DNA from: a virus
Length of the DNA: 37,317 bases
Direction: 5' to 3' (one strand)
Virus record (IMG/VR): IMGVR_UViG_3300042902_000028
Location: 1 to 37,317 of that record
In this document: positions 3,969-37,317 of the stretch, in pieces
How the letters are laid out: each line of letters opens with the position of its first letter
How positions within the stretch are numbered: position 1 is the first letter of the stretch
Program-made: the position numbers and the translations under genes
Notes under the pieces: model-generated
What the model was told of the DNA's origin: nothing
Database searches by the model: none
The model's input: the letters and a program-made list of their open reading frames with translations, nothing else

Positions 3969-4925
3969 GTGGAATTACCAAGACTATTACAACCAAAAGA
4001 AACCTATACAATTGATTATCCACAAGCTATCGCCTATGCTGAAGTACAGCAGGATATCTTTTGGACAGCAAATGAAATTGATATGGAGAAAGACCTACAC
4101 GGTTTAAAGACAGACCTTACCAAAGCAGAGTATCATGCAGTAACAGAGAGCTTGAAGTTATTTACACTATATGAACTTAAAGTAGGGGACTATTGGCTAG
4201 ACTATATATTTAAAACCTTTAAACGACCTGACATTCAGCGTATGGCTAGTGTGTTTGGGTTCTTTGAGTTAAATGTCCACGCTCCATTCTATAATAAAGT
4301 AAATGAGGTGTTAGGGCTCAACACAGACGAGTTCTACGAATCCTATAAAGAAAACAAAGTGTTGTCTAGTCGTATGGATTGGCTAGATAATGCCTTTGAT
4401 AAAGATACAGCTTGGAACGTAGCGTTAGCAAGTATAGTAGAGGGTGCGATTTTATACAGCAACTTTGCTTTCTTCAAGCACTTCCAAGCTACTGGTAAGA
4501 ATAAGTTGGTAAACTTGTGCGCAGGTATCAACTTTAGTGTACGTGATGAGAACCTCCACAGTGAGGCAGGAGCGTGGTTATTTAAGACACTGGTAGCTGA
4601 GCAAGGGGTAGATAGAAATATCTACTTAGAGAAGCTAACAGAGGCTTGTAACACTGTCTATGAGCATGAGTCTGGTATTATTGACCTACTCTTCAAAGAA
4701 GGTAACATAAAAGGTATTACACCTGAGCAGATGAAGCATTTTGTACAAGCTAGATTAGACTTGTGTATGAACCAATTAGGGTTTGACAAAGTATATAATC
4801 CAAGCTATGACCCTATTAGTAAGTGGTTCTATACCAATATCAATAGTGGTCAATTACATGACTTTTTTCATAAACAGGGTAATAATTATAATCGAAATTG
4901 GGTAGAAGGGAGGTTTAAGTGGTGA
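3969..4925 (+). CDS. nrdB: Ribonucleotide reductase class I beta (small) subunit
   Basis: R2-type motifs VEGAILYSNFAFF and RDENLHSE (ExxH iron ligands). GTG start 6 nt after AAAGGA. Immediately upstream of the alpha subunit. Confidence 0.85.
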   Translation: MELPRLLQPKETYTIDYPQAIAYAEVQQDIFWTANEIDMEKDLHGLKTDLTKAEYHAVTESLKLFTLYELKVGDYWLDYIFKTFKRPDIQRMASVFGFFELNVHAPFYNKVNEVLGLNTDEFYESYKENKVLSSRMDWLDNAFDKDTAWNVALASIVEGAILYSNFAFFKHFQATGKNKLVNLCAGINFSVRDENLHSEAGAWLFKTLVAEQGVDRNIYLEKLTEACNTVYEHESGIIDLLFKEGNIKGITPEQMKHFVQARLDLCMNQLGFDKVYNPSYDPISKWFYTNINSGQLHDFFHKQGNNYNRNWVEGRFKW

Positions 4926-16369: not shown

Positions 16370-17881
16370 TTATATTTGTAACTTACCAATCTTGGCTTGT
16401 ATATCTATACGCTGAAGACCAAACTCACCACCAGCAGTTGTTGTAGTAAGACCAAATTGAACCACCCTACCACTACCTCTCAGGGGTGTTGTAACTTCTC
16501 GGTTTGAACTACCAGTACCAAACTCTGCTACTGTATACTCACCTACACCAAATTCATCCCATTTACCTGATTCAGTTGATAATGTCTTATAGTATAACTT
16601 AGTCTCATAGTCAAATTTCCATCTTAATGTAACTAAATAACCAAGACCACCATAGATATGTACTGAGTTTCTCTTTAGCATCTTTTCCATGTTAGATACT
16701 TCTTGACCGAAGTCATTCCATAAACCATCATAATCTAGTGTATATCCTGCCCCTCCAGTACCACCTGAAGATACGTTATCGAAGTATCCTTGATAGTTCT
16801 GTAGGAAGCCTGTATCTAGTCCAAAATAGAGTGTATCATCTGTTGTAGAGCATAAGCTAGTAAATGTTCTTTGCCACTCTGTTACCCTAAATGAACCATC
16901 TGGTAGTGCGGCTCGCACATTGAATTGAAATACTTTATTACTACTTGGAAAAGATAAGAGGTAAAAACCCTCTTTCCTGTTGTATGTAGACTTAACATTA
17001 ACCCCATCTGGGTAGTTTACATAACCTAATAGGTAGTCTCTAATATTCTTTGATACATCCCTGTCAGGTAGTGACTTCTCTTGTACTACTCTACTTAGAG
17101 CTGTTAACCCTCTTGAAGATAGGAATAATAAATCATTACCTACTTGCTGTATTGAGTCTCTAGCTACACAACCTATACCTGTAATGTTCTCTGTCATAGC
17201 AGCAGTTGATAACACTGAATCATATATGATAATGTTATTCTTACCAAATACTGCTAAACCACCATTAAACTCCGATATAGCTACTACCTCATCCATACCA
17301 TCTTTCCAGTACGAAGCTAAATCAAAGAAACCAGCACTACCTCCAGTAAAGTTATTAATAAGTAAGTCAGAGTAGTATAAAACACTTGCTGTAGCAGTCC
17401 AAATACGTCCACCAGCGGCACAAACCATTGCACCATTGTATTGTGTACCACCAGAGTCTGTAAACGTCCCACCAGTCGTTGTAAGGCTTATAGGAGCATG
17501 CCCTCTTTGAAAGCCTACACACCAATCATTAAAGTTAGTGAACTGCCAGTTATCCCCAGTTGGAGTTGTTATAGTTCCTGATATATCCGTTACTGTAGAA
17601 CCTACTGATTTGAATATCTTATTATCAGCGGCAAAAATAAGTACCCTATTTGCATTAGCATCTGAATACTCATGAATGCTCTTAATAGTAGGTGTATTAG
17701 TAATAACCGTAGCATTAACATTTCGAGTACCCTTACGGGCGGCTAATCTGCCATTCTGGTCAAAGACAAAGTTTGTTGCAGTACCTGCCCACCTAGGGTC
17801 TAGCGAGTCATCTGACTGTTGTTTGTTTAACCCTAAAGACCCTGCATAATTTAACCCAAAGTGTACGAGTGGTTTAGCGAT
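16370..17881 (-). CDS. Tail tubular / nozzle-like protein; start codon unresolved
   Basis: The frame is open from 17893 to 16370. The first ATG is at 17428, and there is no ATG/GTG/TTG in the 155 codons upstream of it. AGGAGG (17895-17890) lies 8 nt before an in-frame ATC (17881). The N-terminal text GLNKQQSDDSLDPRWAGTATNFVFDQNGRLAARKG looks like real coding sequence. Confidence 0.5.
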   Translation of the reverse strand: MAKPLVHFGLNYAGSLGLNKQQSDDSLDPRWAGTATNFVFDQNGRLAARKGTRNVNATVITNTPTIKSIHEYSDANANRVLIFAADNKIFKSVGSTVTDISGTITTPTGDNWQFTNFNDWCVGFQRGHAPISLTTTGGTFTDSGGTQYNGAMVCAAGGRIWTATASVLYYSDLLINNFTGGSAGFFDLASYWKDGMDEVVAISEFNGGLAVFGKNNIIIYDSVLSTAAMTENITGIGCVARDSIQQVGNDLLFLSSRGLTALSRVVQEKSLPDRDVSKNIRDYLLGYVNYPDGVNVKSTYNRKEGFYLLSFPSSNKVFQFNVRAALPDGSFRVTEWQRTFTSLCSTTDDTLYFGLDTGFLQNYQGYFDNVSSGGTGGAGYTLDYDGLWNDFGQEVSNMEKMLKRNSVHIYGGLGYLVTLRWKFDYETKLYYKTLSTESGKWDEFGVGEYTVAEFGTGSSNREVTTPLRGSGRVVQFGLTTTTAGGEFGLQRIDIQAKIGKLQI

Positions 17882-18302
17882 GGGAATACCCTCCTAAATA
17901 CTTAATAGCATTTTCAAGATTTTGTGTATTATCCATGAAGTTACCTAAACCAAGGTTACACCGATAACATAAAAGACCCCTAACCACACTCGTTGTGTGG
18001 CAATGGTCTACATGCAATGCTCTCCCCTCCAAATCAACTTCCGATAGACCACAGATAAGGCACTTGTAGTCTTGGTCTTTAAGCATGTTAGAGTAGTCCT
18101 CTAAAGTAATACCATACTTCCTCTTTAGGTCATAGCCTTTTTGTTGTATAAATATATAACCCTTAGTCTTTTTGTATCGCACTTTAGCGGCTTCAGCGGC
18201 ACAAGACTTACAGTTTGGTCTACGACCTTTAGGAGATTGTGCATTTCTATGATATTCCTCTATGCCCTTTTCTTTCCCACACTTAGAGCAAGTCTTAGCC
18301 AT
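17874..18302 (-). CDS. Endonuclease VII-type HNH endonuclease
   Basis: LHVDHCHTTSVVRGLLCYRCNLGLGNF matches the T4 Endo VII family core (DHxH..RGLLC..CN..LG). N-terminal CSKCG..CKSC zinc motif. ATG at 18302 is 9 nt after GGGAGG. Confidence 0.8.
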   Translation of the reverse strand: MAKTCSKCGKEKGIEEYHRNAQSPKGRRPNCKSCAAEAAKVRYKKTKGYIFIQQKGYDLKRKYGITLEDYSNMLKDQDYKCLICGLSEVDLEGRALHVDHCHTTSVVRGLLCYRCNLGLGNFMDNTQNLENAIKYLGGYSHR

Positions 18303-18303
18303 A

Positions 18304-18945
18304 TCACACAACCTCCCAAACTAATTCACTAGGCACGTAAGATGAGTCATAGGCTATTGCATCACTTAAAGCCTTCTCAGCGTTAACCAGAGCATCCCTA
18401 TAGGCTATACCAGAATCTTCACCACGCTCTGAGATAGCTTTAGCGTAAGCGGCTAGTATAACTGGATATTCTGGAACTGTTAGTTCGTCATCAAGTGCCA
18501 CTAAGTCATCTTGAGGAATCTTCATATTAAAGTTAATAGCATAACCAGCATCAGGTACTGGAAATAAATCTACATTATAATCTCCACCTGCTGTACCATT
18601 TACATCATAGTAACTTGGTTGTCCATTTGTAGTGGTAGACGTTGTTAGTTGCATCGTCATCCACTTACCATTGGCTCTTTGTACTTCATAGTTATCTGTA
18701 TCATTAACTACGTATAAAATCTGTGAGCGTTTACCACTTCCTGTTAATGTATAACGGAGGGTACTTGCTACTGTTGTTACTTGAATCGTACTTCTTAGTT
18801 GAACCCAATTCCAAGCATCTTCTACTTCTCTTTTGGCTTCATTCACAAACTCACCAATTAGTTTAGTGTAGCCTGCTGTTAAATCTTGTTCTTCATCTTC
18901 ACGAAGTCTTATCATTACTTTATTAATAATTTGTAGGTAATTCAT
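18304..18945 (-). CDS. Head-tail adaptor / tail tubular protein A-like (putative)
   Basis: 213 aa, first gene after the capsid terminator and upstream of the nozzle-like gene. Assigned by position and size only. Confidence 0.4.
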   Translation of the reverse strand: MNYLQIINKVMIRLREDEEQDLTAGYTKLIGEFVNEAKREVEDAWNWVQLRSTIQVTTVASTLRYTLTGSGKRSQILYVVNDTDNYEVQRANGKWMTMQLTTSTTTNGQPSYYDVNGTAGGDYNVDLFPVPDAGYAINFNMKIPQDDLVALDDELTVPEYPVILAAYAKAISERGEDSGIAYRDALVNAEKALSDAIAYDSSYVPSELVWEVV

Positions 18946-23698: not shown

Positions 23699-24976
23699 TC
23701 AGTAACCACTTACGGAATCAAGAGGTTCATATTCATCATCATACTCTCCAGTGCCATAAATAGCTGTTGCTATCTGGTCAACGTATGCAAGAGAATCTAT
23801 AAGGTCATCGTGTGTTAGCTTATTAGGAAAGTCTAACAATTGGTCAGTAAGAGGTTTAATGTAGTCTGCACCCTCTTTAAAGTAAATACGACCATTCTCA
23901 AACCTACCTTGTAATGCCCATGTAATACGTTCTGTCTTTTTCTTACCACCATGAGTAAGGTCTACTACATTAGGGTATGTACCTAGTCTCCTCATCTGGT
24001 CTTGTAAGTAAGGCATAATAGCATTACGAAGAGAACCCTTCTCAATACCTAAAGCCGCTGGTTGATACTTTTTAGCCGCCTTTATAATCTGTAATGATGT
24101 TTCCCTTACGTCCCATCTACCGTGTATAATGTCATGGATGAACCAACCACTAGGGCTAACCTCTACTACCGAGATAGCTGTCTCATCAAGCCTATTAATC
24201 GCAGACTTAACCATGCCATTACCATCACCGAAGCCAGCAGGGTCAACAGTAATATATATCGTACCCGCCTCCGGAGACTTTTGAGCATATTTCCAATCCT
24301 TCTCCTTAAAGGCTAAACCACCAGCCGCTTGAAACGATGCTTCAAACTCCTGCCTAAATGCTTCCTTGCTCATACGCTGTCTAGCTTGTTCTACCTCTTT
24401 AGGGTCGATGATAGGGTTATCTGTAGAGTTAAACTGAAACTGTTCCCACTCATCTAACTTGTCTGCTTGTAGCCATAGGTCGTAAAAGTGATTCTTACTG
24501 TCTGGAGTACCAATGAATAAGGCACTTCCTTTTGTATCTGCAAGGGCAGGAGATATGATTAAATCCCATACCTCTGGCTTCATGCTAGCATATTCGTCTA
24601 GCACTACATAAGCTAATGATACGCCACGAAGCGTATCAGGTCTATCAGAGCCTTTAAGTTTAATAGTCCTACCATTGATTAGCCTTAAGGTAGCTGTGTT
24701 CTCTAAGGCACTCTCAATGATGTCTGAGCCTATGTCTTTAAGTAAGTTCCACATAATATCTTTAGCCTGCCCAAAGGTAGGGGCTACATACCATGTTTCT
24801 TTATTCTTTAAATTAATACCAAAATCATTAGTTTCTTTAAGAGCTTCAATAAGAAGCATCACAGCAGATAGATATGATTTACCACCACGCCTACCTGCCG
24901 CAACAACTTTAAATCTAGCTGGACTAAGGAATATCTCTTGCTGTTTCTTGTGTAACTTAAAATCTAAACTTGCCAT
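23699..24976 (-). CDS. Terminase large subunit
   Basis: Walker A VVAAGRRGGKS and Walker B VVLDEYAS, with a C-terminal nuclease-like region. ATG at 24976 is 7 nt after AAGGAA; a GTG at 25000 is the alternative start. Confidence 0.85.
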   Translation of the reverse strand: MASLDFKLHKKQQEIFLSPARFKVVAAGRRGGKSYLSAVMLLIEALKETNDFGINLKNKETWYVAPTFGQAKDIMWNLLKDIGSDIIESALENTATLRLINGRTIKLKGSDRPDTLRGVSLAYVVLDEYASMKPEVWDLIISPALADTKGSALFIGTPDSKNHFYDLWLQADKLDEWEQFQFNSTDNPIIDPKEVEQARQRMSKEAFRQEFEASFQAAGGLAFKEKDWKYAQKSPEAGTIYITVDPAGFGDGNGMVKSAINRLDETAISVVEVSPSGWFIHDIIHGRWDVRETSLQIIKAAKKYQPAALGIEKGSLRNAIMPYLQDQMRRLGTYPNVVDLTHGGKKKTERITWALQGRFENGRIYFKEGADYIKPLTDQLLDFPNKLTHDDLIDSLAYVDQIATAIYGTGEYDDEYEPLDSVSGY

Positions 24977-25024
24977 TCGATGTTCCTTTAAGTGCGCCAC
25001 TTGGGTTAAGCACTTTTAATATTA

Positions 25025-25156: not shown

Positions 25157-25335
25157 TTTGGAATACCTTTGTTTTTAGGAGTTGTGGATTTAACCAATTC
25201 TACTTCTTTTTTTAATTCAGAGATTAGACTTACTTCTTCTTCTACCTCTAACCAACCTTGCCGAGAAAGAACTTGGTCGTAATGGTCTTGGGATACTTCT
25301 ATTTCTATTTTACTAATTCTATTCTTTACTTTCAT
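25153..25335 (-). CDS. Hypothetical protein
   Basis: 60-aa ORF coupled to both neighbours. No motif recognised. Confidence 0.45.
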   Translation of the reverse strand: MKVKNRISKIEIEVSQDHYDQVLSRQGWLEVEEEVSLISELKKEVELVKSTTPKNKGIPK

Positions 25336-25792
25336 AATCTTCCTTCTTCACATCAATTACATTAGGGTCTGTTTTAGACAAGTGCTTAGGTAGTTCTAAG
25401 TTTCCTATATTAACACTAATAGAGAAACCCTTAGCGTTCTCAAGGTCATCAAGGTCTATAGCTTTTGTCGTAGGTAGTATACGGTCAAGTAATAACTTAG
25501 CCGCAGTCATATCCCCATCTAGGGCTTTCTTGATAACAGCTTCTACTACCTTCATACCATCCTTTAGTAGTTGCTTCTCAAAACCCTCTCGAATCACCTC
25601 CTTAAATATAGTAGTATTATTCTTAGCACCTTTAGGTCTACCTACAGGAAGCCTAGCAGTTGCCTCTTCACGAGATAAGTATTTACGGTTCTGTTTCTTA
25701 GGTTGAATAACATCTTTAATGGTAGGTTGTTTTAACTTAGGTTTGGTCTTAGAGTTTTCCACAAAGGGACTCCATAATAAAAAGGGGGTCAT
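25319..25792 (-). CDS. Putative terminase small subunit / DNA-binding protein
   Basis: First gene of the leftward operon, upstream of TerL. LPVGRPKGAKNN and DGDMTAAKLLLDRILP resemble small-terminase-like (DUF5681-type) proteins. Confidence 0.4.
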   Translation of the reverse strand: MTPFLLWSPFVENSKTKPKLKQPTIKDVIQPKKQNRKYLSREEATARLPVGRPKGAKNNTTIFKEVIREGFEKQLLKDGMKVVEAVIKKALDGDMTAAKLLLDRILPTTKAIDLDDLENAKGFSISVNIGNLELPKHLSKTDPNVIDVKKEDYESKE

Positions 25793-25831
25793 AAGAAAGA
25801 TTATGAATAGAGCTTGGCTCTCCTAAATACC

Positions 25832-25845
25832 TTAGGAATTCCTAA
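25832..25845. promoter_or_regulatory. Perfect 14-bp palindrome TTAGGAATTCCTAA in the leader of the leftward operon
   Basis: Read directly from the sequence. Related GAATTC-centred palindromes occur at 26015-26024 (AGGAATTCCT) and 26172-26179 (AGAATTCT). Confidence 0.6.
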
Positions 25846-25931
25846 TAAACTTATTAGAGATACTTAGTAATATATAATAATAATATAAATTATAACTACT
25901 AAGAACTTCTAATAATACTAAATAAGGAGGT

Positions 25932-25960
25932 ATTATAGCACGTATTTAACTTCTTGTCAA
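25932..25960 (-). promoter_or_regulatory. Consensus sigma70 promoter for the leftward (structural) operon
   Basis: The - strand reads TTGACA-agaagttaaatacgTGc-TATAAT: a 17-nt spacer with an extended -10 TG. It lies about 140 nt upstream of the 25792 start. Confidence 0.75.
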
Positions 25961-26051
25961 GCCTTATTTTATAACTTACTATTATATAAGGTTATTTAGT
26001 TTCTAGAAGTTCCTAGGAATTCCTTATCTGCGCATGTTAACTCTATTAGCC

Positions 26052-26071
26052 TGTGGATAACCTGTGGATAA
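26052..26071. promoter_or_regulatory. Two tandem perfect DnaA boxes (TGTGGATAA = complement of TTATCCACA)
   Basis: cTGTGGATAAccTGTGGATAAc: boxes at 26052-26060 and 26063-26071, head to tail with an 11-bp period. Confidence 0.8.
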
Positions 26072-26113
26072 CTTTATAATTAATTCTTTGGTAAATTATG
26101 TTCTCGATATCTT

Positions 26114-26160
26114 CTTAGTGGTTTCTTAGAATTTCCTTAGGGATTCCCTTAGGGGCTTCC
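26114..26160. repeat. Four helically phased direct repeats CTTAG-N3-5-TT(C)C (iteron-like)
   Basis: The units are CTTAGTGGTTT, CTTAGAATTTC, CTTAGGGATTCC and CTTAGGGGCTTCC. CTTAG starts at 26114, 26125, 26136 and 26148. Confidence 0.8.
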
Positions 26161-26293
26161 TTTTAAAACCTAGAATTCTCCTATTTTGTGGCTGGGGGTT
26201 ATACACAACTATAAGCCACACCACCTAGACCCCCTCCCCCCATGCAATTACTGTGCCAAACAAACTCTATGCAATTCTTATGCCATCCCTAGG

Positions 26294-26309
26294 TGGCATG
26301 GTACTTGCT
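26294..26309 (+). promoter_or_regulatory. Sigma54 (-24/-12)-like element
   Basis: TGGCATGgtacTTGCT against the consensus TGGCACG-N4-TTGCW: one mismatch, correct GG-to-GC spacing. Confidence 0.3.
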
Positions 26310-26384
26310 TAGAAGTTGAGAGGGAAGTGATGAGGTGGCACACCATTGGACTACCTTAGTATATCATTAGGATACTATTAGCAC

Positions 26385-26414
26385 TTGACAATGATACCTT
26401 GACTATGCTATTCG
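26385..26414 (+). promoter_or_regulatory. Possible early sigma70 promoter (weak -10)
   Basis: ACTTGACA..TGcTATTCG with an 18-nt spacer. Shares the ACTTGACA..TGCTATT layout with the next promoter but lacks the -7 T. Confidence 0.35.
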
Positions 26415-26478
26415 CGTGCATGCGCTTCTATATACTATGATACTGTTTAAACTAATTGTATTTAATTGTAATTAATAC

Positions 26479-26506
26479 TTGACACAATCTTTTATTATGC
26501 TATTAT
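26479..26506 (+). promoter_or_regulatory. Early sigma70 promoter (extended -10)
   Basis: TTGACA, a 16-nt spacer ending in TGc, then TATTAT. Confidence 0.7.
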
Positions 26507-26846: not shown

Positions 26847-26874
26847 TTGACACAATAAAGAATAAGCGTATAAT
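26847..26874 (+). promoter_or_regulatory. Early sigma70 promoter
   Basis: TTGACA, 16-nt spacer, TATAAT. About 36 nt upstream of the 26911 ATG. Confidence 0.75.
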
Positions 26875-32041: not shown

Positions 32042-33694
32042 ATGGGATTAAAAGACAAAGGTACGCTACTATACAAGACAAACTGTACTGAGTGTGGCTC
32101 TAGTGATGCGAATCAGGTCTATGGTCACGAAGATGGTACAACAGATACTTATTGCTTTGCTTGCCAAGCGTATGGTTTTAGTGATACAATAGTAAAACAT
32201 AAACAGGAGGATGATAAAGTGGAAATGAAAGATATAGATAGCCTACCCAGCCTTGGTATCCGTGGTGTAAAAGATGCGGTAGCAGGTTTGTTCGGTGTTA
32301 AGGTGGGCTTTAGTCCTAATGATGGAAAGACAATCATTAAGCAATTTTACCCAAGCACTAAAGAAGGACAGGTTGTAGGTTATAACGAACGTAACGTGCT
32401 GAATAAGGGGTTTTTAGGGGTTGGGGATAGGAAAGGTAGCTTAGAGCTATTTGGGCAGGCTATAGCGAAGCGTAATGGGTATAAAAAGCTATTCATTACT
32501 GAGGGTGAGCTTGATGCAATGAGTTTATATCAAGTAATGGTGGAGAATACACCTGATAAGTATAAAGAGTATAAACCTAGTGTAGTATCTTTTACCAGAG
32601 GGGCAACAGCAGGTCTGAAAGACCTTATTAATAATAGGGCATTCATAGACAAGTATGAAGAAGTTACACTAGTATTAGATAATGATGAAGCAGGAAAGCA
32701 GGCGCAAAGTGAGATACTCAAAACCTTTCACCACTTCAAGGTGGCAGAGTTACCAATGAAAGATGCTAATGCTATGCTGGAGGCTGGTAAGGGTAAGGAG
32801 TTGTATAATGCTTGCATGTGGAACGCAAAGCATGTACGGCAGGGTGAGGTAGTACAGGTAGATGACATACTAATTGAGAAAGCACTAGAAAGACCGCAGT
32901 TTGGTATTAGTAGTCCTTGGGCTAGCTTAGATAAACTAACGTATGGCATCAGACCACATACAATAACAGTACTGGGTGCAGCACCAAAACAGGGAAAAAG
33001 TGAGTTTAAGAACCAGCTTATACACCATTTAGCGATAATACACGAAAGACCAGTTGGAATATTTGACTTAGAAGTACATCCCGTTAAAACATTGAAACAG
33101 GTCGCATCTAAAGAAGCTAAGTTAAACTTCCTTAGACCTGACGTGGAATATAAAGATGAGTTACTAAAAGAGACTTTAGGAAAGTTTAAAGGCAAGTTAC
33201 ATTTATATGACAGGTCTGGGAGTAGAGACTGGGCAGATATTAGGGTTGCTATAGAAGAAATGTACTTATTAGATGGTGTTAGAGAGTTCTTCCTTGACCC
33301 GCTAACAGCTTTAATTAGCCGATATAGTAGTAGTGAAGCCAATGACAAACTAAATGAGATAATGACTGATGTAGCTGACCTAGTAAATAAGTATCCTATC
33401 TCAATCTTCTGCTTCTCACATATTAATGGTAAACCAAAAGGAGCTAAACAACACGAGCAAGGCGCTAAGGTACTGTCTAGTGAGTTTACGGGCAGTCGTA
33501 GCTTAGAGAAGTGGTCAAATCTAGGGTTGGCAATAGAGCGGGATAGAAGTGATGACTGCCCTATTGAAGATAGAAATAAATCTAAGGTTGTGATACTCTA
33601 CGATAGAGATTGGGGCAACTATGGGAGTGTTGATATGTTTTATGACGTTAATACTACAGAATATTTAGAGCCAAGCAATAGGTGGGGCAGATGA
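32042..33694 (+). CDS. Bifunctional primase-helicase (T7 gp4-like)
   Basis: N-terminal Cys4 zinc finger (CTECG..CFACQ). TOPRIM residues ITEGELDAMS and VLDNDEAGKQA. Helicase Walker A GAAPKQGKSEF. Confidence 0.85.
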   Translation: MGLKDKGTLLYKTNCTECGSSDANQVYGHEDGTTDTYCFACQAYGFSDTIVKHKQEDDKVEMKDIDSLPSLGIRGVKDAVAGLFGVKVGFSPNDGKTIIKQFYPSTKEGQVVGYNERNVLNKGFLGVGDRKGSLELFGQAIAKRNGYKKLFITEGELDAMSLYQVMVENTPDKYKEYKPSVVSFTRGATAGLKDLINNRAFIDKYEEVTLVLDNDEAGKQAQSEILKTFHHFKVAELPMKDANAMLEAGKGKELYNACMWNAKHVRQGEVVQVDDILIEKALERPQFGISSPWASLDKLTYGIRPHTITVLGAAPKQGKSEFKNQLIHHLAIIHERPVGIFDLEVHPVKTLKQVASKEAKLNFLRPDVEYKDELLKETLGKFKGKLHLYDRSGSRDWADIRVAIEEMYLLDGVREFFLDPLTALISRYSSSEANDKLNEIMTDVADLVNKYPISIFCFSHINGKPKGAKQHEQGAKVLSSEFTGSRSLEKWSNLGLAIERDRSDDCPIEDRNKSKVVILYDRDWGNYGSVDMFYDVNTTEYLEPSNRWGR

Positions 33695-34164
33695 TTACAC
33701 AAGAAAGATTGAAAGAGCAACTTCATTATAACAAGGAAAGCGGAGTGTTTAGGTGGGATTGCTGTAAGTCTGGGGTAATTAAAGGCAAGGTTGCGGGAAG
33801 GCTTAATAATAAAGGTTATTCACAGATTATGATTGATGGTGTTAGATACATGTCTCATAGATTAGCTTGGCTATATGAGTTTGGAGAACACCCAAAAGAA
33901 TTTTTAGACCACCTTAATCACATTAGGACTGACAATAGGATTGTAAACCTAAGGGCAGTATCTCACAGGGAGAATATGAAGAACCAAGTAGTTAGAGCAA
34001 CTAATAAAACTGGAGTAACAGGTGTTAGAGTGAATAAAAAAGGTAGGTTTTTAGTTGATATACAAAACAACTATTATGGGACTTTTGATAACTTAGAGTT
34101 TGCAACTCTTGTGGCATCAGAGGTTTATGATAAGCTAAATTACCATTCTAATCACGGGAGTTAA
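33691..34164 (+). CDS. HNH (HNH_3) homing endonuclease with AP2-type DNA-binding domain
   Basis: LDHLNHIRTDNRIVNLRAVSHRENMKN (HNH_3 core) followed by GVTGVRVNKKGRFLV (AP2-like). ATGA overlap with the primase-helicase stop. Confidence 0.75.
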   Translation: MITQERLKEQLHYNKESGVFRWDCCKSGVIKGKVAGRLNNKGYSQIMIDGVRYMSHRLAWLYEFGEHPKEFLDHLNHIRTDNRIVNLRAVSHRENMKNQVVRATNKTGVTGVRVNKKGRFLVDIQNNYYGTFDNLEFATLVASEVYDKLNYHSNHGS

Positions 34165-34166
34165 TT

Positions 34167-36014
34167 ATGGAAGAGTTAATAGCGGACATCGAAACGGACG
34201 GAATAAATCCAACTAAAATACATTGTATTGTAGATAGTAATGGTTTTGAGTCTACAAGTTACACTGAAATGAGGGGTTGGGTTAGTGATAAAGATGAGAG
34301 CACGCTATTAATTGGACATAATTTTGTTGCTTATGATTCAGTTGTAATTAACAAGTTACTAGGGACTCCAGTAAAAGCAGAGTTAGTTGATACTTTATAC
34401 CTCAGCTGGTATCTCTTCCCACGGAGGGTTAAGCATAACTTAGAGTCTTGGGGAGAAGATTTTGGAGTACCAAAACCTAAAATAGAAGACTGGAACAACC
34501 TAACTCCTACTCAGTATTTACATCGCTGTAGGGAGGATGTTCGTATAAACAAGATGCTTTGGGAGTTACAAAAGAAATACTTAATAGATATTTATGGTAG
34601 TTTAGAAGAAGCACTTCCTCTTATCCGTTACCTAACATTTAAGGCAGATTGCGCTAGGCTACAAGAGGAAACAAAGTGGAAATTAGATGTACCTAAAGCG
34701 TCACAATTACACACTACTTTTTGTGACAAACAAGACCTTGCAAAAGATACGTTACAGTCAGTAATGCCTAAGGTTAAGAAGTACACAAAGAAGACTAGAC
34801 CTGCTAAGCCTTATAAGATTGATGGTACACTATCAGCTACAGGATTGAAGTGGCAAGCATTGACAATGGAAGGTAATTTATCATTTGATTATGAGGGAAC
34901 ACTAGAAGTATTTCATAGCTTACAAGAACCTAATGCAGGAAGTAGCAAACAGATTAAGGATTGGCTATACGATTTAGGGTGGCAACCAGCTACCTATAAA
35001 TTTATAAAAGAGGAGTTTAGTGAAAGAAAGATTCCACAGATTAAGACAGCAGATGGTGATTTGTGTCCCTCTATAGAGCGTATGGTAGCCAAGAATCCAG
35101 AGTTAGCTAGTCTAGCAGAGCTTGGGGTATTAGGACACCGTATAGGCATCGTTAAGGGCTTTCTAGATGCAGAAGTAGACGGTTATGTAGTAGCTGGTAT
35201 ACAAGGCTTAACTAATACCCTTAGATTTAAACATAGAACATGTGTTAATATACCTTCTAGCCGTAAGCCGTATGGTAGTGAGATTAGGGAGTTACTTACA
35301 GCAGAAGAAGGTTATGAGCTATGTGGTAGTGATATGTGTAGCTTAGAAGATAGAACAAAGCAACATTATATGTTTCCATATGACCCTGAGTATGTAGAGG
35401 AAATGAATGTAGAAGGTTGGGATGCCCATTTAGATATTGCAGTACAAGCTAGTATGATGACAGAGTTAAATGCTCTTAGTTACAAGCAAGGTAATAAGAC
35501 AGATGAGCTTAGTTTGATTAGATACAATGCAAAAACTGCAAATTATTCATGCACCTATGGCGCTTTTCCTAAGACAATAGCTAGACAGGCAGGTATGAGT
35601 TTAGAAGAAGCCACCAAGCTAAGAGAAACATATTGGGAGCGTAATTGGTCTATACTAGAGATAGCTAAGAATGTAGTCACTAAGGTTGTACAAGGGGTTA
35701 TGTGGTTATACAATCCAGTATCAGAGTTATGGTACTACCTTAAGACAGAGAAAGATAAGTTTAGTACCCTTAATCAAGGTACAGCATCATTTTTATTTGA
35801 CATGTGGGTAAAGGAGATTAGAACAAGACAACCTAAGATTAAGTTGGTAGCAAACTTCCATGATGAGGTTGTGTTAGCAGTTAAGGTGGGTTATAGAGAC
35901 AAAGTAACAAAGTTATTAAAAGACTCTGTTCAACAAGTAAATGCTACATATAAACTGAATAGAGATTTAGACGTAGATGTAGATTATGGGGAGAACTACA
36001 GTGAGGTGCATTAA
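34167..36014 (+). CDS. Family A DNA polymerase with 3'-5' exonuclease domain (T7 gp5-like)
   Basis: Exo I ADIETDG and Exo II GHNFVAYDSVV. Pol motif A GSDMCSLEDR, motif B RYNAKTANYSCTYG, motif C ANFHDEVV. Confidence 0.85.
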   Translation: MEELIADIETDGINPTKIHCIVDSNGFESTSYTEMRGWVSDKDESTLLIGHNFVAYDSVVINKLLGTPVKAELVDTLYLSWYLFPRRVKHNLESWGEDFGVPKPKIEDWNNLTPTQYLHRCREDVRINKMLWELQKKYLIDIYGSLEEALPLIRYLTFKADCARLQEETKWKLDVPKASQLHTTFCDKQDLAKDTLQSVMPKVKKYTKKTRPAKPYKIDGTLSATGLKWQALTMEGNLSFDYEGTLEVFHSLQEPNAGSSKQIKDWLYDLGWQPATYKFIKEEFSERKIPQIKTADGDLCPSIERMVAKNPELASLAELGVLGHRIGIVKGFLDAEVDGYVVAGIQGLTNTLRFKHRTCVNIPSSRKPYGSEIRELLTAEEGYELCGSDMCSLEDRTKQHYMFPYDPEYVEEMNVEGWDAHLDIAVQASMMTELNALSYKQGNKTDELSLIRYNAKTANYSCTYGAFPKTIARQAGMSLEEATKLRETYWERNWSILEIAKNVVTKVVQGVMWLYNPVSELWYYLKTEKDKFSTLNQGTASFLFDMWVKEIRTRQPKIKLVANFHDEVVLAVKVGYRDKVTKLLKDSVQQVNATYKLNRDLDVDVDYGENYSEVH

Positions 36015-36021
36015 TGAAGTA

Positions 36022-36465
36022 ATGTTAGAGTATTATAAATATGATAGTAAAACTGGTAAATGTGGGGGTTAAAATGGAAACAAGCAACATAAGCATAACC
36101 AAGGGTACTATAATCTATGGAAAGATGTACAAGGTGAGAGATATAGGATGTACGCACATAGGTTTGCATTCCTATACATGACTGGAAGTATTCCAGAAGA
36201 GATTGACCACATTGATGGTGATGGTGGTAACAACATTTGGTCTAATTTAAGGGTTGCAACTAAATCTCAGAATGTTATGAACAGACCAAACTGGGGTAAG
36301 TTTCCAAAGGGTATATCACAACGAAGGGTTAGTGATGGTTATAGAGTTAGGGTACAGGCACATGGTAATCAGGTTTTTGATGAGACGTTTGAGGAACTGG
36401 AGTTTGCAGAGCTAGTTTCTATAGAAGCTAGGGAGAAGTACCACAAAGAGTTTAAGCGCAATTAA
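36022..36465 (+). pseudogene. Second HNH_3/AP2 endonuclease, interrupted by an in-frame TAA at codon 17
   Basis: Hand translation gives MLEYYKYDSKTGKCGG*NGNKQHKHNQGYYNLWKDVQGERYRMYAHRFAFLYMTGSIPEEIDHIDGDGGNN..LRVATKSQNVMN..GYRVRV. It is collinear with the 33691 paralog. The TAA is at 36070-36072. An internal ATG at 36148 could yield a truncated product. Confidence 0.65.
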
Positions 36466-37190: not shown

Positions 37191-37317
37191 GCGCATTGAG
37201 GGAGATAGGAGATGATAAAGCTAAAGGCACTAATTGATTTAGATCCTATAGTGTATCGAATAGGGTTTGCTTGTCAGGCAAAAGATGAGGATGGAAATGT
37301 AAAAGCAGAACCAATCT
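37191..37317. repeat. Terminal overlap, copy 2 (identical to 1-127)
   Basis: Exact 127-nt identity. 37212-37317 simply duplicates the first 106 nt of the exonuclease gene. Confidence 0.95.

Follow-up and report, generated by a model that had tools for sequence, protein, structure and literature searches.

Why should a phage that encodes its own primase-helicase and DNA polymerase carry, between two divergent sets of promoters, a pair of perfect binding sites for the bacterial initiator DnaA? To our knowledge, T7-type replisomes are considered independent of host initiators. The question was raised by an uncultured podovirus, IMG/VR record IMGVR_UViG_3300042902_000028, of which positions 1 to 37,317 were analysed (this whole stretch of 37,317 nucleotides is called the window below). 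An initial annotation, made from the letters alone, had proposed that the two boxes serve either the opening of an origin with the assistance of host DnaA, or the control of the divergent promoters by DnaA, and knew of no description of such an arrangement for T7-like replication modules. If true, a DnaA-assisted start site would show how relatives devoid of RNA polymerase begin replication.

Genome organisation

Bases 1-127 and 37191-37317 of the window are identical, which indicates a circularly closed assembly with an overlap, and a unique genome of 37,190 bp; the contig starts at the beginning of the exonuclease gene. The genes are arranged in two arms. The rightward arm, on the plus strand from 26505 through the window end to 6619, contains early, replication and nucleotide-metabolism genes: small early ORFs, thymidylate synthase, a DNA methyltransferase, HNH endonucleases, a gp6-like exonuclease, endonuclease I, ribonucleotide reductase, a T7 gp4-type primase-helicase (32042..33694, plus strand) and a family A DNA polymerase (34167..36014, plus strand). 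Any origin present here must serve the replisome to which this primase-helicase belongs. The leftward arm, on the minus strand from 25792 down to 6693, is headed by a TerS-like gene encoding a DUF5681 protein (25319..25792), next to which comes TerL (23699-25000); portal, major capsid and tail genes belong to the same arm. This two-arm architecture is that of Zobellviridae such as CW02. The DNA polymerase shares at most 48% identity with those of cultured phages (Pseudomonas GP100 and PA11, Salinivibrio CW02, vibriophages). For TerL, cultured relatives were all at or below 31% identity at a coverage of at least 80%, so that the packaging type is not inferable from this protein.

No RNA polymerase, initiator, Rep protein or helix-turn-helix regulator was found among the approximately 35 ORFs scanned against Pfam and PHROGs, scans which left many early ORFs without annotation. 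A six-frame phmmer search of the window with domain IV of E. coli DnaA yielded no homolog (best E-value 2), and the window ORFs gave no Pfam match to Bac_DnaA_C (PF08299). The initial annotation had recognised no initiator, and these scans agree with it.

The replication genes are interspersed with up to three ORFs for HNH-type endonucleases (33682-34164, 36148-36465 and 824-1246). The two that flank the DNA polymerase gene gave solid matches, and the third (824-1246) was under the Pfam cut-off; these ORFs are probably homing endonucleases. GATC is found only 5 times, and CCWGG once, in the 37.2 kb, as compared to about 130 and about 30 occurrences estimated from base composition. Strong avoidance of both sites is known for T7, and its presence here hints that the host may methylate or restrict DNA specifically at GATC and CCWGG. 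GC skew switches at the same place as the direction of transcription. As it is confounded with gene orientation, it provides no independent evidence for an origin, and we dropped it from the argument.

The tandem boxes and the control region

The largest non-coding gap of the genome is a divergent control region of 712 bp (25793..26504); the second largest, 445 bp long (17429-17873), lies in the structural arm between ORFs 16370-17428 and 17874-18311. The control region harbours two perfect DnaA boxes, TTATCCACA, both read on the minus strand (CCTGTGGATAAC on the plus strand), box 1 at 26052..26060 and box 2 at 26063..26071. They are placed head to tail, with their starts 11 bp apart and a 2-bp CC/GG spacer between them. 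The 12-mer of box 1 is identical to E. coli oriC R1, and that of box 2 is identical to R1 and also to R4, as CTGTGGATAACT. In the whole window, TTATCCACA has 3 matches where 0.39 are expected, the third one (4016-4024, plus strand) being located within the gene for the small subunit of ribonucleotide reductase (RNR), and the chance expectation for a co-oriented perfect pair within 30 bp is about 6×10−5. The two 9/9 matches reported in the initial annotation, head to tail and 11 bp apart, were therefore confirmed, and so was its opinion that an adjacent identical pair is beyond chance.

Two more sites in the neighbourhood fit the consensus TTWTNCACA. An R2-type box, TTATACACA, is found at 26199..26207 on the plus strand, in the orientation opposite to that of the tandem boxes, and sits in a weak hairpin (26188-26224). 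A consensus-class box, TTTTCCACA, is found at 25755..25763, also on the plus strand, inside the start of the TerS-like gene, where its presence is possibly fortuitous. In total, 4 of the 7 matches to TTWTNCACA in the window fall within 453 bp. Taken together with its flanks, the R2-type box (26195-26210, GGGGTTATACACAACT) matches E. coli oriC box R2 and the bases around it at all 16 nt. These flanks deviate from the general flank preference of DnaA boxes, and the 16-mer is absent in the relatives of the phage. A preference for C-T-T at the downstream positions +1 to +3 is common to viral and bacterial boxes. The R1/R4 12-mer flanks, the extended bacterial consensus and the lack of a phage DnaA-like protein make it very probable that the sites are meant for host DnaA, and, as far as can be judged from their sequence, the tandem boxes are likely to be genuine high-affinity docking sites for this protein.

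On one side of the boxes lies the late, structural promoter PL (25932..25960, minus strand), a 12/12 sigma-70 promoter made of TTGACA, a 17-bp spacer and TG-n-TATAAT, with its −35 at 25960-25955 and its extended −10 at 25937-25932. PL reads leftward into the TerS-like gene. The transcribed leader of this late operon is an AT-rich tract (25837..25936), toward which the tandem boxes point; no 60-bp duplex window of the genome is less stable than 25865-25924, and no 100-bp one less stable than 25837-25936, both being about 4.4 standard deviations above the mean. On the other side, early promoters occupy 26385..26506 on the plus strand, where 26385-26413 is a degenerate copy and 26479-26506 a strong one (11/12), and a third early promoter (12/12) follows at 26847-26874, on the same strand. 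A short AT-rich stretch (26072..26100) abuts box 2 on the early-gene side. Beyond it are four phased repeats (26111..26158, plus strand) with the core (C)CTTAG(G) and a period of 11-12 bp. Their CTTAG units are at 26114, 26125, 26136 and 26148 (spacings of 11, 11 and 12 bp), and the CTTAG motif is 6-fold enriched in the region, with a strand bias of 8 vs 1. A C-tract, CCCCCTCCCCCC, is found at 26230..26241 on the plus strand. The surroundings noted in the initial annotation, namely divergent early and late promoters on the two sides of the boxes, a very AT-rich tract and phased iteron-like repeats, are thus all real.

A palindrome, TAGGAATTCCTA, is present downstream of PL (25833..25844), and a second copy, TAGGAATTCCTT, lies between PL and the DnaA boxes (26014..26025), so that the two copies bracket PL at about +90 and −60. 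Both resemble operators of a putative dimeric regulator, and may possibly support looping. Rfam and tRNA scans of the control region came out empty, and an RNA structure envisaged at 26170-26320 was discarded, its fold z-score of −1.9 being not significant.

Comparison with bacterial origins

The control region was compared with the E. coli K-12 oriC record. As in the left half of an enteric oriC, an AT tract, an R1-type box, about 136 bp of DNA and an R2-type box follow each other, with the same relative orientations. However, the DNA between the boxes is unrelated (z = −1.5), and the window region contains neither an IHF consensus nor a GATC site. These differences rule out that the phage captured or copied the oriC of a host. 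The ensemble that characterises an enteric-type oriC (DUE, R1, IHF, low-affinity sites, R2 to R4, GATC clusters and overall conservation) is not found in the window.

A simpler pattern is the basal unwinding system (BUS), which consists of one or two DnaA boxes, in tandem and at most 3 bp apart, plus DnaA-trios. It is searched for as at least 3 consecutive trios (NAN, preferably 3′-GAT-5′) within 16 bp, on the side to which TTATCCACA points, and its boxes are orientation-dependent. The window has two perfect boxes with a 2-bp spacer. After box 1, the minus strand reads GG-CTA-ATA-GAG-TTA, which gives two consecutive trios (GAT and TAT), and no register gives three within 16 bp; the strand assignment of the trios follows our reading of the “5′-tail” statement on BUS and the E. 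coli layout. The arrangement is therefore box, 2 bp, box, 2 bp, GAT-TAT, where the first trio comes 13 bp after the upstream box; in BUS, the spacing between box and first trio peaks at 10-13 bp. Tandem co-oriented consensus boxes 2 bp apart and a box-proximal GAT trio at a typical spacing are thus shared with bacterial origins, but the element of the window resides on a phage endowed with its own helicase-primase, and its boxes are dispensable in relatives.

Relatives of the phage

Nucleotide searches with the control region against GenBank phages, in near and distant mode, gave no match. The TerS-like protein had no relative in IMG/VR, and its exact sequence was found on one Logan contig only (run SRR35182500). 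As a consequence, there is no close relative for a fine-scale comparison, and the relatives examined were 80 phages related by TerL (54-74% identity) and 71 related by the primase-helicase.

The initial annotation had put forward a comparison across related phages as a test of its proposal. Among the 80 TerL relatives, 3-4 sub-lineages have 1-3 perfect boxes in the equivalent divergent non-coding region, but most relatives are box-free, yet keep the promoter and the AT-rich leader. The boxes precede the −35 of the late promoter by about 50-110 bp in the window and in relatives L162, L193 and L177, and by about 285 bp in L359. In the box-bearing TerL relatives, a GGGGGGACCC-type tract is found 130-160 bp toward the early genes. 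Promoters equivalent to PL were detected in L129, L162 and L359. Of the 71 phages related by the primase-helicase, L359 carries five perfect boxes that immediately follow a CCCCCCCGGGGG tract and lie between the same two sets of promoters, and L349 has three boxes close to the contig start, about 4.7 kb upstream of the primase gene. Whereas the boxes point at the AT tract in the window, their orientation with respect to the same promoters is reversed in L359, L193 and L162. Contigs L185 and L183 are identical from the first DnaA box onward (nt 215 of L185, nt 98 of L183) and unrelated before it, which places the box array at a recombination joint between modules.

A leader element conserved in relatives both with and without DnaA boxes was observed between the late promoter and the TerS start (L129 5490-5530, L162 1462-1500). 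Its sequence is agattcacctaaaa(a)ggcttc..ttagaaa.aacctt, and it may serve as a pac site or act in the leader RNA.

In CW02 and Klyazma, two cultured phages that share the two-arm architecture, the equivalent region is free of boxes. The termini of Klyazma were verified by Sanger sequencing, and its 711-bp terminal repeats are placed exactly between the starts of the structural and the early arm. This makes the 712-bp region of the window a likely site for the termini and the concatemer junction; by analogy with Klyazma, region 25793..26504 probably contains both.

Distribution of the boxes among phages and bacteria

The exact 20-mer TGTGGATAACCTGTGGATAA was found in at least 120 viral contigs of IMG/VR, whereas a composition-matched scrambled tandem was found in 0. 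It is also present in at least 120 bacterial species. The viral contigs, among the matches listed, differ widely in G+C content and in flanking sequence. At 90 of the 117 distinct viral loci among these matches, the pair is outside any ORF of 100 aa or more, and a mean of 3.5 co-oriented boxes, vs 0.4 opposite ones, was counted within 300 bp at these 117 loci. Mis-binning of bacterial origins as viral contigs is ruled out, since among the matches listed dnaA or DnaA domain IV was detected in 47 of 120 bacterial 8-kb loci vs 0 of 120 viral ones.

Stretches of G or C accompany the phage boxes. A G/C run of at least 5 occurs within 200 bp for 66% of the pairs on phage contigs, vs 22% of control positions in the same loci, and a run of at least 6 for 26% of the phage pairs vs 4% of the controls. 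The contrast is weak in bacteria (41% vs 31%). These runs lie mostly 3′ of the TGTGGATAA reading (L001-L120; also 26230-26241 in the window, L401 in Tiff81, L203 in phiEap-1 and L399 in FBKp16). Two other candidate companions were rejected. The AT profile is flat across the 117 phage loci among the matches listed, with no AT-rich peak that would betray a DUE adjoining the arrays, and a composite “box + CTTNAGG” motif, prompted by phiEap-1, is not general (5 of 233 viral boxes).

BLAST with a three-unit array returned 151 GenBank phage records. Concerning the double-stranded DNA phages, by our own count 21 of 55 rows were within 600 bp of a record end, and belonged to about nine lineages, including Arthrobacter phages (right cos end), Siara, BD1, VCPH and T5-like phages. 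The T7-like phage phiEap-1 has 5 perfect co-oriented boxes, with C-tracts before them, in its exact 195-bp DTR, and the exact 177-bp DTR of another T7-like phage, Shigella phage A7, holds 4 perfect and about 5 degenerate co-oriented boxes. In Arthrobacter phage Tiff81, three boxes and a G/C tract are found within 95 nt of the right cos end, and in Vibrio phage BD1 three boxes lie within 60 nt of an end. The boxes of Siara are inside a PhageTerm-predicted repeat, and FBKp16 has seven boxes in a 1.3-kb non-coding region, beside a CCCCATAGGGG element. The first 900 bp of T7 contain no DnaA boxes; CCTAAAG arrays and a CCCCCATAGGGGG element are present instead. Tandem DnaA-box arrays were also observed in the non-coding DNA of small circular single-stranded DNA phages, the Microviridae or gokushoviruses H36, H39, H41, H42 and H54, where a role in replication, such as DnaA-dependent priming of the complementary strand, would be plausible.

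DnaA-box arrays have been described for T5, in a preprint. Its eight boxes are grouped in four pairs, each linked to the IRC/IRD inverted repeats and with a spacer of 3 bp, and lie ahead of the early genes, where the first-entering terminal repeat is non-coding and rich in repeats. The origin of T5 has been reported elsewhere than at its boxes, and the preprint offers, as a hypothesis, a role of bound DnaA in the injection stop signal (iss). T5 was the only case of described arrays in the literature searched, and no paper linking DnaA boxes with T7-like or Zobellviridae phages was found in it. The novelty claimed for T7-like modules thus persists as far as the publications searched go, but fails for the sequences themselves: perfect DnaA-box arrays are common in terminal or junction regions of phages, including the exact terminal repeats of cultured T7-like phages (those of phiEap-1 and A7 are filled with boxes), and we conclude that the element of the window belongs to a widespread, sparsely described class and is not unprecedented for T7-type phages.

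Possible roles of the tandem boxes

The reading that we favour, tentatively and as possible rather than probable, is that host DnaA docks at the boxes and helps to open an origin, composed of a promoter and an AT tract, for the T7-type replisome. Two DnaA molecules would bind cooperatively on the same face of the helix, aided by the R2-type box about 136 bp away, and the complex would extend toward the side to which the boxes point. PL would transcribe straight into the least stable DNA of the genome, and DnaA and transcription together would open the AT tract in the manner of the T7 primary origin, using host RNA polymerase and host DnaA. The gp4-type primase-helicase and the family A polymerase of the phage would then load. 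The promoter and its AT-rich leader would constitute the conserved core of such an origin, and the DnaA boxes an accessory booster present in some lineages only.

This preference stems from the fact that the boxes face the least stable DNA, from the R1/R2-like layout, from the BUS-like spacing with a proximal GAT trio, and from the lack of a phage initiator or RNA polymerase. We also count in its favour the fact that independent sub-lineages have boxes ahead of the −35 of the late promoter, the non-random pair within a group of four consensus-class boxes in 453 bp with R1, R4 and R2 flanks, and the occurrence of the 20-mer in at least 120 bacterial species, with dnaA in 47 of the 120 loci among the matches listed. 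Several observations count against it. Only two trios are present, vs a BUS minimum of three, and the AT tract begins some 40 bp away from the boxes. The boxes are missing in most relatives, in CW02 and in Klyazma, despite the same promoter and AT leader in most relatives, and their orientation flips in L193, L162 and L359 while BUS boxes depend on orientation. We know of no requirement for DnaA of a gp4-type helicase, from what is known of T7 replication. An AT-rich peak is absent beside the arrays of the 117 phage loci among the matches listed, the T5 origin is elsewhere, and the array-bearing T7-like phages have an RNA polymerase of their own. The part of the initial proposal that holds is therefore the presence of genuine-looking DnaA sites in a layout compatible with host-assisted opening of an origin; the number of trios and the frequent absence or inversion of the boxes in relatives speak against it, and the skew is uninformative.

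The main rival is a role at the end of the genome. The boxes would be part of the terminal-repeat or junction region, and DnaA bound there, partly associated with the membrane, would act on the end of the phage DNA. Before early transcription sets in, it could keep the first-entering DNA in place, pause it or ratchet it, along the lines proposed for T5, or shield the end, or else assist terminase. The evidence that speaks for this role concerns the class as a whole: the 21 of 55 double-stranded DNA phage rows close to a record end in about nine lineages, the co-oriented boxes that fill the exact DTRs of phiEap-1 and A7, the published arrays of T5, and the association with G/C runs, for the most part a trait of phage contigs. 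A presence that is sporadic and an orientation that is free also suit an accessory docking site. Closer to the window, Klyazma has its verified terminal repeats in the divergent early/late region of the same two-arm architecture, and the window itself, with its short repeats in phase, its C-tract and its early promoters in tandem, displays features of the T7 terminal region. On the other hand, the circular assembly, with its 127-bp overlap, provides no physical ends, and the enrichment may be partly trivial, since non-coding DNA is concentrated at termini anyway. The window has two tandem boxes vs 5-9 in the T7-like repeats, and the C-tract of the window, like that of L193, has the boxes on its late-promoter side, which departs from the T7-like order. 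The T5 model, moreover, is a hypothesis from a preprint and has no experimental support. For the present phage, we regard this role as doubtful, though a serious competitor.

Co-oriented CTGTGGATAAC arrays with a nearby G/C homopolymer tract may form a portable cis-module, located at or near the ends of unrelated virulent phages, an idea drawn from sequence patterns that we offer as a speculation, somewhat on the unlikely side. The carriers would be T7-like phages, T5-like phages, Zobellviridae-like podoviruses and actinobacterial cos siphoviruses. Such a module would exploit one DNA-binding protein whose site is almost invariant in all bacteria, and as the DnaA box is nearly universal, it could work in any host. 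In the present phage, it would provide a DnaA-dependent start for a T7-type replisome devoid of RNA polymerase, or tether the entering end. It could also act as a recombination joint between phage modules. The existence of cultured carriers (phiEap-1, A7 and Klebsiella przondoviruses) makes the function of the arrays directly testable.

Control of transcription, titration of DnaA and a function unrelated to DnaA are less likely than either assistance to an origin or a role at the genome end. Regarding transcription, DnaA would modulate PL or insulate it from the early promoters, so that late expression would be coupled to the DnaA-ATP status of the host. DnaA is an established transcription factor, which stimulates for instance lambda pR; in several sub-lineages, the boxes precede the late promoter by a comparable distance, and in the window they adjoin the pair of palindromic putative operators that brackets PL. 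However, with their centres at about −131 and −142 relative to the predicted start, the boxes are remote for a direct contact; in relatives the corresponding positions vary between about −84 and −150, with a larger distance in L359. PL is already a consensus promoter, and the T7-like DTR arrays have no sigma-70 promoter nearby in a comparable position. The second proposal of the initial annotation, control of the divergent promoters, is weakened by the 131-142 bp that separate the boxes from the late start site, and we now consider it unlikely.

Still less credible is a function that does not involve DnaA, in which a phage protein that has escaped recognition would use the boxes as its operator, or recombination between modules would have left them behind as a short conserved joint. 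Many early ORFs have no annotation, and the identity between L185 and L183 that begins at the first box has the aspect of a mosaic joint. Against this, the exact consensus with bacterial-type flanks recurs in phages of unrelated hosts while the scrambled tandem was found in 0 contigs, and no DnaA-domain-IV-like protein was detected in the window or near the 120 viral loci among the matches listed. Finally, a DnaA sink, by which replicating phage genomes would titrate DnaA like the chromosomal datA and block new rounds of host initiation, agrees with independence from orientation and position and with sporadic gain and loss, but is highly improbable, as 2-4 boxes per genome add little capacity until late infection, the IHF consensus is absent, and the association with G/C tracts and the enrichment at ends are left unexplained.

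Comparison with known phage and plasmid systems

The primary origin of T7 is composed of the phage promoters phi1.1A/B followed by an AT-rich region. In the window as in T7, a strong promoter reads into the most AT-rich and least stable DNA, for a gp4/gp5-type replisome. The differences are that the promoter of the window is of the host sigma-70 type and serves the structural operon as well, and that T7 has no DnaA boxes in its first 900 bp. The CTTAG repeats of the window can be compared with the CCTAAAG arrays of the T7 terminal region. A second resemblance is with iteron replicons that use DnaA as a host factor, such as P1 oriR, pSC101, F and RK2, where Rep binds the iterons and recruits the host DnaB. 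There too, DnaA boxes, sometimes in tandem, flank an AT-rich region and short direct repeats, but no Rep gene was found in the window, and its replisome is phage-encoded. Pelagiphages of the HTVC010P type provide a precedent for a phage-encoded DnaA domain IV, from which the window differs by having no Bac_DnaA_C gene.

T5 is, like the present phage, virulent and equipped with its own replisome, and has closely spaced pairs of perfect or near-perfect boxes in a repeat-rich non-coding region that precedes the early genes. The window differs from it by a single pair with a 2-bp spacer, accompanied by dispersed single boxes, and no comparable inverted-repeat framework was found there; the four pairs tied to IRC/IRD, by which a T5-type iss is recognised, are thus not seen. 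A location of the boxes of the window within a terminal repeat, as in T5, is nevertheless plausible by analogy with Klyazma.

The T7-like DTR arrays of phiEap-1, A7 and Klebsiella przondoviruses resemble the window in several respects. They are built of the CTGTGGATAAC unit, with a C/G tract close by and short repeats in phase; downstream come sigma-70 early promoters in tandem, and the replication module is of the T7 type. Theirs comprise 4-9 boxes inside an exact DTR, in phages that have their own RNA polymerase, whereas in the window two boxes stand in tandem, RNA polymerase is lacking, the structural genes are read from the other strand and the DTR is putative. The elements that accompany the arrays in these T7-like phages are all present around the boxes of the window: the C-tract at 26230-26241, the CTTAG repeats at 26111-26158, and the early promoters at 26385-26506 and 26847.
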